DNA of 64,000 nt from Minisyncoccota bacterium (lineage in GTDB: Bacteria; Patescibacteriota; Minisyncoccia; Phycocordibacterales; SBAW01), in assembly GCA_035549255.1 (NCBI GenBank), contig DASZRD010000004.1, forward strand, positions 8,667 through 72,666, in the 5' to 3' direction. The position numbers were made by a program, and so were the translations under genes. Position 1 is the first letter of the stretch, and each line of letters opens with the position of its first letter. Of the stretch, positions 6,322 to 49,317 are shown piece by piece. Below the pieces are notes generated by a model. The model had not been told where the DNA came from. It saw only the letters and a program-made list of their open reading frames with translations, and searched no databases.

Positions 6322-6340
6322 ATCTGCTAGGATGGGCACA

Positions 6341-6452
6341 TGTTCGGGCTATTCGGCAAACACCGCGACCGCTTTACCAAGATCTTTGCTTGGGTGGTCG
6401 GCACGCTCGTTATCGCGAGCATGATCGTAGCGTACTTCTCGCTACTCTTCTA
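6341..6452 (+). CDS. Possible small membrane peptide (37 aa, MFGLFGKHRDRFTKIFAWVVGTLVIASMIVAYFSLLF)
   Basis: Unlisted short ORF followed by a perfect GC hairpin at 6484..6511 (gggccgcagcgc-ttgc-gcgctgcggccc). Confidence 0.3.
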
Positions 6453-6638
6453 ACTCCTGAGCGTGCACCCTATCACGAGGAGGGGCCGCAGCGCTTGCGC
6501 GCTGCGGCCCTGTGCTCCACATACTACACCTATCCGACATCACTAGCAAACAAGCCATTGTGTGGATATCCCCCGCCCCCTATTTGCGCACCCGTACAGG
6601 AGGTATATAACTAGAGCCAGTTACCAGGGAGGAAGGTC

Positions 6639-6809
6639 ATGCCTATCAACTGGGTTCTATTGGCGGTAATCGTTCTTGCGGCAATCATCGTATTCATCAT
6701 CTTCTTCGTCTTCGGCGCAATGAAAGCAGCCAGCGACGCCGATGACGAGATAGAGCGGTGGGAGGAGGAGGCCGGCCTCCGCAAGAAATCCGATCGGTCA
6801 TCCATCTAG
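6639..6809 (+). CDS. Possible small membrane protein (56 aa)
   Basis: An agggaggaagg RBS lies 6 nt upstream. The TM segment is VLLAVIVLAAIIVFIIFFVFG. A terminator follows. Confidence 0.35.
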   Translation: MPINWVLLAVIVLAAIIVFIIFFVFGAMKAASDADDEIERWEEEAGLRKKSDRSSI

Positions 6810-6878: not shown

Positions 6879-8969
6879 CTATCGACCCATTTGGTAAAGC
6901 TGAGCCACCTCGCTCGCCGAGAGCGCGCGGTTGTAGATGCGGACGTCGTCTATAGAGCCCGGGAAGTAATTGCCCGCCCCGCAGCCGCTGGACCCCGCCT
7001 CGGAGCCGATGCAGTCGCGTATGGCGCTGGTGTAGCGGATAGCACCGCTCGGGCTGGTGTTGTCCGAGACGTCGACGCCGTTGACATAGAGCCGGAGGGT
7101 CTCGCCGTCGTAGGTAGCCATGGCGTAGTACCAGGTATTCTGCGCGATATTGGTATCGGTTACATAATAGTAGGTGCCGCCGATGTTGACCGTGGCATCG
7201 AGCCCCGTGACGGTGTCATTGAAGGCGAGGCTGTAGCCGCCCGACTCGGTCTTGGAGAGAATGCGGGTGTTGGTGGTTGTGCTGGTAGCCCTAAACCACG
7301 CGCCAAAGGAGATGGTAGTGGGCTCGAGCGTGACGCTGCGCGGTATCGAGATATATGAGGCACTGCCGTCAAATTTGAGCGCCTGGCCGACCTTCCCTGC
7401 CACGGGCGCGGTGGTCGTGCCCAAGCTCACGAGCGTGCCGGTGTTGCCCGTGCCGCTCATATCGGCGATCGTATTTGAGCGCCAGTTGATGGTCGAGCCG
7501 TCCATAGTCCAATAGCCGACCAGGCCGGAGTTGATATTCCCTGCATTAGTCGTAGGCCCCGGCGAGTGTGCGATATTGGTCTGACCGAGACGATAGAGCT
7601 GGGACACCTCGCTAGCGGAGAGAGCGCGGTTGTAGACGCGGATATCATCGAGATAGCCCGAGAACCAGTCGCCCGAATTCCCGCCCACGAAGGCGACCGG
7701 ACACCCGTAGGTTTTTGAAATGGTTCCCACAGCCGCGCCGTTGGCATAGAGCGTCGCGGTACCGGTGTTGTTGACGAAGACGAGATACGTCCAGGCGTTC
7801 TGCGGCACGGTATAGGAGGGCGAAAAGGTGTCGTCCGAGACACCGTACGCCGTCTCGCCGGCTATGGTATTGCCCACCTGCTGCACGCGCAAACTGTATT
7901 GGCCGCTATCCATCATCGGGTAGCCGTGCGACTGGCTGGCGCTGTTGCGCAAGTTTACCCAGCCGGTAACCGTGCATGGTGCGGAGACATTTGAGCCCGA
8001 TGTGGGGATATACGCTCCCGATGCAAGCGAGAGCGCCTGACCTATCTTCCCTGCCACGGCAGTTATGGCACCGCTCACAGAGGTAAGCGTGCCGGTGATG
8101 CTGCCGACGATATCCTGCGTCGTCGGGCCCGCCCAATTAGTGGTGTTGCCGTCCATAGGCCAATAGTCAACCAGGCCCTTAGAGAGCGGTGCGGCGCTCG
8201 AGTGGCCGAGGGTGGCTCTCTGACTCTGTAGGGAGCTGATGTCGCTTTGGGTAAGCGCGCGATTATATCCCTTGAGGTCGTCTATCTGGCCGTTGAAATA
8301 GTTCGCAAGATCGCTGCAGTGGCCCGAAGCGCTGGTGAAGCTGCAGCCCTGCTGCGGGTAGCCCGCGAGAAAGTAAATGTCGTCGGGCGGCGCCCACGCG
8401 CCGCTTTGTGTGCCCTGGAGCACTCCGTCAACATAGAGCGACTGCGTCTGCGCTATGCCGTCGTAATAGAGGACGACGTTGTACCATTGCCCCGCGTTGA
8501 TAGGAGAAGAAGCGATGTCGCCGATGTTCCAGAAGCCGGCATAAAATGCGCCGTTGTAGATGCCGACGAGCGTATAGTGGTAGCCCGAGCTCGGCGCGCC
8601 ATCGCCTTCTTCGGTGAGGACACTCTGCTCGGTGGCCACGTCATTAGCCTTTACCCACATCGAGAGCGAGACGGAGGTCGGGAGCGAGCCGATGAGGCCC
8701 CAGGCGTATTGATTGGTACCATCAAGCGTGAGCGCCTGGCCATTGTGGCCGGCGGCGACGGATGCGCCATTGACGAGCGTGAGATTGTGCCCGTTGCCCG
8801 AGAGGTCGGAGACCGTGTTGCCGCTGACCGTACTGGAATCGAAGGACCAGTACGCGGTCACGCCCAGCTGATTAGCCGGCACCGAGATCGTGCTGATCCG
8901 CGCTGCGGCGTCAGCCGTAAGCGGCAGGAAAAACAGCGCGGCAAAGAGCATGTAGAAAGTCTTTTTCAT
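6879..8969 (-). CDS. Secreted LamG-domain (concanavalin A-like lectin/glucanase) repeat protein, 3 modules
   Basis: Signal peptide MKKTFYMLFAALFFLPLTADA. Three modules each end in the motif DD(I/V)R(V/I)YNRALSASEV(S/A)QLY, characteristic of Laminin_G_3 repeats. Confidence 0.75.
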   Translation of the reverse strand: MKKTFYMLFAALFFLPLTADAAARISTISVPANQLGVTAYWSFDSSTVSGNTVSDLSGNGHNLTLVNGASVAAGHNGQALTLDGTNQYAWGLIGSLPTSVSLSMWVKANDVATEQSVLTEEGDGAPSSGYHYTLVGIYNGAFYAGFWNIGDIASSPINAGQWYNVVLYYDGIAQTQSLYVDGVLQGTQSGAWAPPDDIYFLAGYPQQGCSFTSASGHCSDLANYFNGQIDDLKGYNRALTQSDISSLQSQRATLGHSSAAPLSKGLVDYWPMDGNTTNWAGPTTQDIVGSITGTLTSVSGAITAVAGKIGQALSLASGAYIPTSGSNVSAPCTVTGWVNLRNSASQSHGYPMMDSGQYSLRVQQVGNTIAGETAYGVSDDTFSPSYTVPQNAWTYLVFVNNTGTATLYANGAAVGTISKTYGCPVAFVGGNSGDWFSGYLDDIRVYNRALSASEVSQLYRLGQTNIAHSPGPTTNAGNINSGLVGYWTMDGSTINWRSNTIADMSGTGNTGTLVSLGTTTAPVAGKVGQALKFDGSASYISIPRSVTLEPTTISFGAWFRATSTTTNTRILSKTESGGYSLAFNDTVTGLDATVNIGGTYYYVTDTNIAQNTWYYAMATYDGETLRLYVNGVDVSDNTSPSGAIRYTSAIRDCIGSEAGSSGCGAGNYFPGSIDDVRIYNRALSASEVAQLYQMGR

Positions 8970-28360: not shown

Positions 28361-28398
28361 AAAACCGCCCCGGAGATTTTCTCCGGGGCGATTGTTTT
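28361..28398. repeat. 38-bp repeat copy 1 containing a perfect terminator hairpin (aaaaccgccccggagattttctccggggcgattgtttt)
   Basis: Identical to 28921..28958. Confidence 0.75.
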
Positions 28399-28920: not shown

Positions 28921-28958
28921 AAAACCGCCCCGGAGATTTTCTCCGGGGCGATTGTTTT
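28921..28958. repeat. 38-bp repeat copy 2 (identical terminator hairpin)
   Basis: Perfect direct repeat of 28361..28398. It serves as a convergent terminator for 28493..28912 (+) and 28958..29323 (-). Confidence 0.75.
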
Positions 28959-47295: not shown

Positions 47296-47772
47296 TTACT
47301 GCGCAGACCCCGAGAACACGCGCAAGGTCACGTCGCACGGGCACTGCACCGGCTCGTTCGGCTGCGTGCCCTTGAAATCGGTCGAGACCTGGGTCGCGAT
47401 AAAATCACCCCCCTTGCTATAGACCGTTATGTCGCTCCCTGGCCCGCCCGCCGCGCGCGCGATATCGACGCTCCAGCCGGCGGCAAGGAGCTTCTGTCTG
47501 TAATAATCCTCAAAAGGCTGCGAGGTCGAGGCGATGTTGGTGATATCGGTCGCCGCCTGCGAGGTAACCTCGACCCCTATCAAGTCTTCAAGCGTTGCCG
47601 AAGCGACGCTTCCCCACGCCACACCCGTATAGAGCGGATAGGCGTCTGCCGCAAGCAGCGGCGCCGAATTGTTGGTCGTGGGCGCCTGCGCCTGCTCGCC
47701 CCAGAGCCAATATATAGCCGCGGCGGCGATGACGAGCACTACGATTATGCCGATAATGGTCGATGATTTCAT
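47296..47772 (-). CDS. Secreted hypothetical protein (158 aa)
   Basis: Signal anchor MKSSTIIGIIVVLVIAAAAIYWLW. Confidence 0.45.
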   Translation of the reverse strand: MKSSTIIGIIVVLVIAAAAIYWLWGEQAQAPTTNNSAPLLAADAYPLYTGVAWGSVASATLEDLIGVEVTSQAATDITNIASTSQPFEDYYRQKLLAAGWSVDIARAAGGPGSDITVYSKGGDFIATQVSTDFKGTQPNEPVQCPCDVTLRVFSGSAQ

Positions 47773-48086
47773 AGGCTTTCGTTATATACTAAAGACGGTC
47801 AATTACCCATAGTATTTCATTATATATGAACGGCAGCAATGTTAATACGATCCTGATCGTCGTAATATTAGTCCTCCTGGTGGGCGCAGGCGTCTGGTGG
47901 TACGAGACCTACGGCCCCGGCCACGCGCAGCCGGCCCAGCAGCAAAACGGCCTCAATATCAACGTGGGCTCCTCCAACGACAGCAGCCAATAACCAAAAG
48001 ACCCTGCAAGGGGTCTTTTGCTTTGTCAGCCCTTGAGGGTTCTGCTAGATTGGGTTTAGGAGAACCACTTACGAGAGGTTAGCGAC

Positions 48087-48380
48087 ATGCCTGCCAAACA
48101 AGGGTTTGAGACTGCGGACGATATGCGGGCTTGGCCGCGCGAGCACCAGGAAAGCTGGTACATCAGGTCATTTACTCGTTTTGTTATCGCCGACGACGAC
48201 AAGGGCTACATACGGGAAGGCCGCAACCTGCGCGCGCTTGAGCGGCTGTGGGGCTTTACCAAGACGGAAGCTCACGAGCTCCAGCTCAGAGCTTTAGAAG
48301 CTCTAGTCGATATGAGCCGCGAGATGGACGATGGCCTCGGCCCGGTCCCCGCAGCCGCTCCGCTCCCCACCCAACATTAG
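48087..48380 (+). CDS. Hypothetical protein (97 aa)
   Basis: ORF followed by a perfect 14-bp-stem terminator. Confidence 0.45.
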   Translation: MPAKQGFETADDMRAWPREHQESWYIRSFTRFVIADDDKGYIREGRNLRALERLWGFTKTEAHELQLRALEALVDMSREMDDGLGPVPAAAPLPTQH

Positions 48381-48389
48381 GCGACAGCG

Positions 48390-48420
48390 GGCTCCGCGAT
48401 CACGCGTGATCGCGGAGCTC
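48390..48420 (+). terminator. Palindromic terminator gctccgcgatcacg/cgtgatcgcggagc
   Basis: Perfect 28-bp palindrome followed by tctttcg. Confidence 0.6.
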
Positions 48421-48475
48421 TTTCGTATAGAAAACCCTTATTTCAGGCCTTATACTATCAGATGCCGCGGGATAC

Positions 48476-48504
48476 TTGACATATATTTAATATTGGTGTA
48501 GTAT
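48476..48504 (+). promoter_or_regulatory. Orphan sigma70-like promoter (TTGACA-17-TAGTAT, AT-rich, TATAAA overlapping)
   Basis: cttgacatatatttaatattggtgtagtataaat, in a low-GC intergenic stretch with no adjacent credible ORF. Confidence 0.4.
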
Positions 48505-48510
48505 AAATAT

Positions 48511-48830
48511 CAGAAGATCTTTGGCTAAGCGGACACCGCGCTGAAGAAGCGCCCGCAATCTCAAAGGTAGGCCGTGCTTTGCAGGCTACCGAGACTAAGT
48601 CCAGTGCATGACGAGGCAGCCCCGCGGATGTTTTTGTCCGAGCGGTACGATCTCCATGCGGCTTAGCGCCACGACATCTTCAAAGGTTCTCAGCTTGTGG
48701 CAGGTTTTGCGCGCGAGCGCCCGCCGAAGCTGCATGTCCGCCTTTTTGCGGACGAACGACGAACCAGAGGCTCGATGCGCGAGCCTCAATCCCAGAGCCC
48801 TTCGTAATTTTGCGAGGGCTCTTTTCATTC
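48511..48830 (+). ncRNA. Candidate ~320-nt sRNA or structured leader between the orphan promoter and an intrinsic terminator
   Basis: Promoter at 48476..48504 and terminator at 48794..48829. It contains the hairpin gtccgc-cttttt-gcggac. The overlapping ORFs (48608..48928 +, 48595..48906 -) start with TTG, lack RBSs and are not convincing. Confidence 0.3.
48794..48829 (+). terminator. Intrinsic terminator (agagcccttcg-taattttg-cgagggctct + ttt)
   Basis: ~10-bp stem with one bulge, followed by cttttcatt. Confidence 0.5.
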
Positions 48831-48871
48831 CATCGACGCTTGATGCTTTATTTTGCGTGGAGATTTTGCTA

Positions 48872-48893
48872 AAGTACAAAAGAATTTGTACTT
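48872..48893. promoter_or_regulatory. Perfect 9-bp-arm inverted repeat AAGTACAAA-agaa-TTTGTACTT upstream of the 48928 gene
   Basis: Seen directly, 35-55 nt upstream of the GTG start and adjacent to a TTGACA at 48900. Confidence 0.35.
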
Positions 48894-48927
48894 GTGTCCT
48901 TGACAATCAATCCGAGGAGGAATTGTA

Positions 48928-49266
48928 GTGAACTTTCAGACAATGAAGTCCGATGTGCTGGCGGCGATCATGCCGGACCGGTGGAGGGATGTGACGATCA
49001 TACTCGATGCGGTAAATGACGCGTGGAAAAAGCGCGGCGAGAGGACTCTCTTCCTGCGAAGGCTGCGCACACTCAGCACAGCCACCCTGTGCGACATCCT
49101 TACCGACCTAGAGGATGAGGGCATGATAATCGTAAACGAAGGGCATGTTCCGTCTGGACTGCACGAGCATGACAACCGGTACGAGCACGCGCACATGCGG
49201 CGTATAGAGGCCGCTGCTCCCGCGGCGCGCCCGGCTAAGGGCAGGCGCACGCAGATGTACCGATAA
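48928..49266 (+). CDS. Hypothetical protein (112 aa), possible winged-helix regulator; GTG start
   Basis: RBS gaggagga 6 nt upstream of the GTG. The LSTATLCDILTDLEDEGMIIVNEG segment is HTH-like. Confidence 0.45.
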   Translation: MNFQTMKSDVLAAIMPDRWRDVTIILDAVNDAWKKRGERTLFLRRLRTLSTATLCDILTDLEDEGMIIVNEGHVPSGLHEHDNRYEHAHMRRIEAAAPAARPAKGRRTQMYR

Positions 49267-49317
49267 TCACAAGCCCCAGCGCCGCGCGGACTAGTCCGCG
49301 CGGCGCTTTCTTTTTAT

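Follow-up and report, generated by a model that had tools for sequence, protein, structure and literature searches.

A candidate structured small RNA with its own promoter and terminator in a variable islet of a soil Paceibacterota genome

We analyzed a 64,000-nucleotide (nt) window, that is, the whole stretch of DNA from position 8,667 to 72,666 of contig DASZRD010000004.1 (assembly GCA_035549255.1), which derives from a metagenome-assembled genome (MAG) of a soil Candidatus Paceibacterota, a member of the candidate phyla radiation (CPR). Positions below count from the first letter of the window. Our subject is a candidate RNA unit in the 547-nt gap between a 97-amino-acid (aa) gene (48087..48380) and a 112-aa gene (GTG start, 48928..49266), the window's largest gap that is truly free of open reading frames (ORFs); an independent Logan assembly of the locus was 100% identical. 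Together with a 55-aa gene, these two genes and the RNA form the four mini-cassettes of a fast-turnover islet of 1.6 kb. Each cassette, whether protein gene or RNA, has its own terminator, and promoters could be assigned within the islet to the 97-aa gene and to the RNA. An earlier note on this DNA had proposed that an orphan promoter and terminator here delimit a small RNA (sRNA) of ~320 nt. The features that define the unit are the following.

48389..48420 (+), left edge of the unit: intrinsic terminator of the 97-aa ORFan gene that lies upstream, a perfect 14-bp hairpin (-25.5 kcal/mol) with tail UUUCGUAU
48476..48504 (+), sigma-70-type promoter: -35 TTGACA (48476..48481), 17-nt spacer, -10 TAGTAT (48499..48504); 10 of 12 consensus positions, with a perfect -35
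48511..48830 (+), predicted non-coding transcript of ~315 nt: 58% GC, 67% of bases paired in the minimum free energy (MFE) structure
48513..48681 (+), 5' domain, a predicted four-way junction: closing helix GAAGAUCUUUGGC/GCCACGACAUCUUC; arms 48529..48556, 48559..48594 and 48595..48666
48685..48765 (+), first part of the 3' domain, a predicted three-way junction: closed by GGUUC/GAACC, with a GCGA (GNRA-type) tetraloop hairpin inside
48736..48753 (+), predicted hairpin gtccgc-cuuuuu-gcggac within that three-way junction
48767..48787 (+), perfect 8-bp hairpin GAGGCUCG-AUGCG-CGAGCCUC, one of the MFE helices
48794..48830 (+), intrinsic terminator: stem 48794..48806/48811..48822 (8+4 bp), -17.6 kcal/mol, U-rich tail UUUCAUUC

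The promoter was present as the earlier note had described it, and sites this good are rare: six occur on both strands of the window (128 kb of strand), compared with 3.3 +/- 1.8 in dinucleotide shuffles. Among the remaining five, two lie directly upstream of real genes. The lexA gene (45566, minus strand) has a perfect 12/12 site, TTGACA-16-TATAAT, which ends 6 nt ahead of the ATG, and a marR-type gene is preceded by an 11/12 site. Because such sites sit upstream of lexA and marR, we consider a consensus sigma-70 promoter to be meaningful in this organism; the TAGTAT hexamer is also found upstream of other genes in the window. Transcription from 48476..48504 is predicted to start at about 48511..48513, in the sequence TAGTATaaatatCAG, and no ATG, GTG or TTG was found at that position.

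This last result gains weight from the way genes begin in this organism. Most genes in the window have no Shine-Dalgarno (SD) sequence (median anti-SD duplex, -1.4 kcal/mol), and TAnnnT was found 4-9 nt upstream of the longest-ORF start in 17 of 64 likely genes, compared with 4.4% for arbitrary ATG or GTG codons. Between 27% and 52% of genes look leaderless, which indicates that leaderless mRNAs are widespread in this organism. Examples of leaderless-type starts, with a TAnnnT -10 close to the start codon, are:

45566 (lexA), 50201, 58751 and 54142 (-), leaderless-type starts
1451 (+), leaderless-type start

Since leaderless starts are common and no start codon lies at the predicted transcription start, the promoter does not appear to be driving a leaderless gene. 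By the same token, the lack of a ribosome-binding site, which the earlier note had held against the ORFs of the gap, is a weak argument where most genes have no SD and many look leaderless; the missing start codon at the transcription start is the stronger one. About 320 nt beyond the promoter, the predicted intrinsic terminator was also borne out, with a hairpin at 48794..48822 followed by a U-run. This hairpin, at -17.6 kcal/mol, resembles the terminators of three neighbouring genes (-15.9 to -28.3 kcal/mol) in style and strength.

Between these two signals we found no convincing ORF, as had been proposed. By a codon log-odds score, for which 16 long genes from the window served as the training set, the six frames of 48510..48830 were all negative (-0.30 to -0.54), compared with 0.45 +/- 0.26 for the true frames of real genes and -0.02 +/- 0.19 for their best wrong frames. 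The 106-aa plus-strand ORF does read through the terminator; it starts with ATG (48608), and so the statement that both listed ORFs use TTG was in error. A conserved small ORF, which the earlier note had named as a finding that would refute its proposal, was looked for in protein collections and not found. The low GC content ascribed to the segment holds for the promoter spacer and the post-terminator spacer alone (~0.46), and not for the transcribed body, which at 0.58 is typical of the genome.

The plus-strand transcript is predicted to fold strongly (MFE, -134.8 kcal/mol; z = -4.65). In a background run of 45 same-length windows with 60 shuffles each (mean z -0.51, sd 1.25, minimum -4.45), the RNA reached a z of -4.0, the second most negative of the 46 windows; the most negative value of the background set came from the region around 6301. 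Most of the signal derives from the 3' half (48684..48830, z -5.07), with the MFE structure accounting for 10% of the ensemble. This half contains both of the internal hairpins that we could confirm, at 48736..48753 and at 48767..48787.

On the basis of these sequence signals, our tentative reading, to which we assign somewhat less than an even chance, is that the unit encodes a structured small non-coding RNA of ~315 nt that is specific to the species and transcribed on its own. RNA polymerase would start at about 48511..48513 from the near-consensus sigma-70 promoter; the GC-rich body would fold into a weakly supported, multi-branched 5' domain and a well-defined 3' domain (the three-way junction and the 8-bp hairpin); and transcription would end at the intrinsic terminator. 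We infer that this RNA is transcribed, terminates at 48794..48830 and has a function. It would most likely act as a riboregulator, in trans or in cis, with ties to the islet and probably to the adjacent 112-aa gene.

The islet setting was defined by comparison with a relative. When the window's SpoU methylase gene was used as a query against 185,579 species genomes, the scan yielded one close relative, L002, a Paceibacterota MAG with ~80% nucleotide identity. The flanks of L002 are colinear with the window, with SpoU, ICMT and MGMT-like genes on one side and h158, PHA95 and PPIase on the other. Between the conserved h158 and MGMT-like genes, the region corresponding to 47657..49295 is swapped for an unrelated 2-kb block (L002 4236..6293) with ORFs of 77, 171, 148, 52 and 111 aa, which include two homologues of the 112-aa gene as well as other ORFans. 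The 111-aa ortholog is 63% identical to the 112-aa protein in the N-terminal 62 aa, after which the two diverge completely.

Several results weigh against the sRNA reading, one being that the RNA has no homologue in any collection searched. No RNA-like sequence was detected in the 9-kb syntenic contig of L002 by blastn or tblastx. Querying metagenomes with the adjacent MGMT-like gene gave 42 loci (31-84% aa identity), in all of which synteny was gone, and neither blastn nor nhmmer matched the RNA in these loci or in L002; one 38-nt blastn match (L063) lay inside ksgA. A single-sequence covariance model (CM) of the 3' domain, run over 330 kb of loci (including L002 and L046), gave no credible match; its sole match (L053, 26 bits) falls within the coding sequence of a DUF45 gene and is a false positive. 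With the RNA and both flanking proteins as queries, viral contigs, GenBank phages and plasmids were negative as well, two pattern matches in the viral and phage searches having fallen within one phage coding region. The element is thus a single-genome orphan and at best a species-specific accessory RNA. With no homologue to compare, the predicted structure has neither covariation nor signs of selection behind it.

The search for a target or partner of the RNA identified none, nor did a ligand suggest itself. Among the neighbours, codons 7-12 of the 97-aa gene are the most complementary to the RNA (14 of 16 nt), but this is unremarkable, in that ~0.5-1 such match is expected by chance in the 2-kb region searched and the window containing the site ranked 3111 of 8472 in a duplex scan. 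The fold also carries less weight than its z-score might suggest. The minus strand of the region folds nearly equally well (z -4.26), other stretches of the window also reach z-scores of -3 to -4.5, and the 5' domain, at z -2.29, is marginal. Moreover, folding one sequence alone is no proof of a functional structure. What the earlier note observed is real and exceeds chance, and its proposal of a ~320-nt sRNA is partly supported: the signals, the non-coding character and the strong predicted fold all fit it, and no test contradicted it, although no homologue could be found that would show covariation.

Downstream of the terminator, on the same strand, lie features that bear on how the RNA and the 112-aa gene might be related:

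48868..48876 (+), TGcTAAAGT, a possible extended -10 promoter, as read from the sequence
48872..48893 (+), perfect 9-bp palindrome AAGTACAAA-AGAA-TTTGTACTT, a possible operator that overlaps TGcTAAAGT
48915..48921 and 48928..49266 (+), SD sequence GAGGAGG and the 112-aa ORFan gene with its GTG start, 100 nt past the terminator

The palindrome occurs once in the window, where chance alone would give 0.01. From their positions, TGcTAAAGT and the palindrome may be the 112-aa gene's own promoter and operator, which suggests that this gene can be expressed independently of the RNA promoter. We further considered that the unit might be a functional, young, lineage-restricted RNA gene in an accessory module with the 112-aa ORFan protein (maybe DNA-binding) and the palindromic operator, for example a regulator, decoy or immunity-type RNA gained and lost in the variable islet. 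This more specific proposal is possible but somewhat unlikely.

The alternative that survives best is that the RNA is the terminated leader of the 112-aa gene. Here the promoter at 48476 would drive that gene, most transcripts would stop at the now internal terminator, and read-through, perhaps conditional, would give the mRNA. The unit does have the makings of a terminator-containing 5' leader, with a promoter, a long structured RNA, an intrinsic terminator and, within 100 nt of it on the same strand, a start codon led by an SD. That SD forms the strongest anti-SD duplex of 23 genes tested (-11.8 kcal/mol), which in a mostly SD-less and leaderless genome implies a leadered or polycistronic mRNA. 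No promoter matching at least 9 of 12 positions was found for the gene between 48830 and 48927, and its ortholog in L002 is operon-internal, being a second cistron that is translationally coupled to a 52-aa membrane-protein ORF. A 10-codon ORF with an SD (48775..48807) terminates inside the terminator loop, and its translation could mask the terminator.

Conversely, no riboswitch, T-box or leader family of Rfam was matched, even at E<=10, beyond generic-hairpin noise of 9-13 bits. A simple antiterminator alternative was not found among the pairing options on inspection; the hairpins at 48767..48787 and 48794..48822 have common GAGCC/GGCUC cores, as seen manually, and a partner swap between them would make a pseudoknot. 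Unlike a typical riboswitch, T-box or attenuator leader, the element is not kept upstream of homologues: the upstream regions of the two L002 homologues differ from it, and it is thus not common to the three members of the 112-aa family in L002 and the window. The candidate extended -10 and palindrome could, in addition, give the 112-aa gene a promoter and operator of its own. We regard a leader or attenuator as unlikely, although it is the most serious competitor of an independent sRNA. As a separate observation, a pairing between UCCUUG (48899..48904) and CGAGGA (48915..48920) is predicted for a leadered or read-through transcript and would partly sequester the SD of the 112-aa gene.

A second alternative is that the unit is a non-functional relic, i.e., a decayed or replaced gene cassette of the fast-turnover islet that retained its promoter and terminator and whose transcript, if any, would be noise. 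The replacement of 47657..49295 by unrelated sequence in the closest relative is in keeping with this idea, as are the near-zero codon scores of the neighbouring ORFan cassettes (0.07 for 48087..48380 and 0.05 for 48928..49266, where typical genes score 0.45) and the coding-like GC content and cassette-like size of the RNA body. The most gene-like plus-strand frame runs from GTG 48574 to TAA 48807 (77 codons) and is interrupted by a single TAG, and a weak GC phase (0.63/0.47/0.63) fits this frame. Its codon score is nevertheless -0.30, under the usual value for the best wrong frame, and by a Poisson estimate a run of 77 codons with at most one stop has a ~25% chance in random sequence of the same composition. 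The frame-restored product (X at the stop) had no true homologue among 1.84 billion representatives, the sole match being a spurious one to a eukaryote-like tandem-repeat protein. Descent from the islet proteins of L002 was rejected as well, as none of the five ORF products of the block matched positions 47650..49300 of the window by tblastn. The signals are strong and intact and the fold exceeds the background, which speaks for an RNA product rather than a relic; we consider the relic distinctly unlikely.

Less probable again is that the unit encodes a small protein. Gene callers do find one: both NCBI and Logan annotate 48595..48828 of the minus strand as coding for a hypothetical protein of 77 aa (P0002), and three short plus-strand ORFs (in the range of 10-30 codons that would have to be considered) have SD-like sequences of -5.8 to -7.8 kcal/mol. 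The minus-strand ORF, however, has a negative codon score and no promoter on its own strand, and no SD or leaderless -10 could be read from the sequence upstream of it. Its helical N-terminus is the terminator palindrome in translation. In a search of 5.8 billion proteins, the minus-strand ORF, taken as 103 aa, matched itself alone. The annotated 77-aa protein is probably a spurious call. With the 106-aa plus-strand ORF reading across the terminator, we judge a protein product of either strand to be improbable.

The remaining alternative is a housekeeping RNA that has diverged beyond recognition by Rfam. For the whole window, Rfam 15 at the gathering threshold returned only tRNAs elsewhere and nothing at the RNA. 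At E<=10, neither a 611-nt piece spanning the gap nor the 191-nt piece with the 5' domain gave a match, and the 156-nt 3' domain gave just chance matches of 9-13 bits to generic hairpins. Transfer-messenger RNA (tmRNA) was sought with both ARAGORN and Rfam, and neither detected it (no tRNA-like domain or tag-peptide ORF). Neither 6S RNA nor signal recognition particle (SRP) RNA gave an Rfam match, and the MFE structure is multi-branched and not a rod. The by-eye statement in the earlier note that rnpB, tmRNA, SRP RNA and 6S RNA are not matched is in agreement with these searches.

RNase P RNA was the one family with a point of resemblance. In the 5' domain, GAGACUAAGUCC (48591..48602) can pair with GGCUUAG (48660..48666) in a P4-like manner, enclosed by a terminal P1/P2-like helix. 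By eye, this helix resembles P4 with its bulged U in the E. coli M1 RNA. In RNase P RNA, P4 is flanked by the conserved regions (CR) CR-I (GGAAAGUCC) and CR-V (ACAGAA..GGCUUA); where ACAGAA would be expected before GGCUUAG, the RNA here reads UCUCCA (again compared by eye with E. coli M1 RNA). The likeness to bacterial RNase P RNA thus consists of a short P4-like helix (AAGUCC/GGCUUA, with a possible bulged U) within a terminal helix, in an RNA of ~300 nt. In other respects the candidate departs from that family (RF00010/RF00011), and we rejected it: no CM score of even ~10 bits was obtained on the 191-nt 5' domain; the 57 nt between the P4-like strands form one irregular hairpin, so that the specificity domain and P15 are missing; the ACAGAA of CR-IV/V is absent; ~150 nt of additional 3' structure extend beyond the P1-like closure; and the element is not conserved, being missing at the syntenic locus of L002.

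In CPR bacteria, RNase P RNAs have diverged so far that they score under the Rfam thresholds and need relaxed cut-offs, which lends some plausibility to a missed family member; on the other hand, the bacterial type A model was reported to suffice for recovering them (PMC8172020). Nor would an essential RNA be expected to be missing where a relative of ~80% nucleotide identity is otherwise syntenic. Because the element is a single-genome orphan in a fast-turnover islet, an essential housekeeping RNA is excluded, and we consider a diverged RNase P, 6S, SRP or tmRNA overlooked by Rfam to be extremely improbable.

Returning to the candidate sRNA, a close counterpart is found in the intergenic, Rho-independently terminated bacterial sRNAs. 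The classic E. coli screens for sRNAs used the criterion of an orphan promoter plus terminator. With these RNAs the unit shares a sigma-70-type promoter of its own, a U-tailed intrinsic terminator, the lack of an ORF, an intergenic position and several stable hairpins ahead of the terminator. It differs from typical members in its length (~315 nt is at the long end), in not being conserved in the nearest relative, and in having no seed or target that could be identified and no known chaperone context. In a literature search that was not exhaustive, we found no experimentally characterized sRNA in CPR bacteria. No described family was matched, and the candidate would, as yet unverified, belong among the generic bacterial sRNAs or leaders that are defined by promoter and terminator.

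CPR bacteria are uncultured and have very small genomes, and almost nothing is known of how they are regulated. If the sRNA reading is true, the unit gives metatranscriptomics a concrete target and offers a first entry point to riboregulation in Paceibacterota; if functional, it may count among the earliest candidate riboregulators to be located in the phylum. Lying in a gene-turnover islet, it would also illustrate the origin or decay of young RNA genes. At present its value is that of a candidate, not of a discovery.

The protein genes that flank the RNA have features in common. Both (48087..48380 and 48928..49266) have a clear SD, unlike most genes in the window, and this, together with their low codon scores, is consistent with recent acquisition or fast evolution. 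Neither the 97-aa nor the 112-aa protein had a match in Pfam, PHROGs, PADLOC or NCBIfam. An AlphaFold2 (AF2) model of the 97-aa protein had a pLDDT of 73 and no match in the PDB by Foldseek; that of the 112-aa protein was of low confidence (pLDDT 46). We also considered whether the unit could be a mobile element, a diversity-generating retroelement or a repeat, and rejected this, as terminal repeats are lacking, the window contains no second copy, and genes for an integrase, reverse transcriptase or transposase are absent from the vicinity.

Several tiny membrane-protein mini-genes (37, 56 and 55 aa) lie at 6340..6809 and 47826..47993, and at least the 37-aa and 55-aa genes have a terminator hairpin of their own at the 3' side. 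The 37-aa mini-gene looks leaderless (TAGGAT, 6 nt, then ATG). Finally, two identical 25-nt terminator hairpins of sequence CGCCCCGGAGATTTTCTCCGGGGCG, at 28366..28390 and 28926..28950, are both followed by ATTGTTTT and stand around a 139-aa ORF of low codon score, which suggests a duplicated cassette end.

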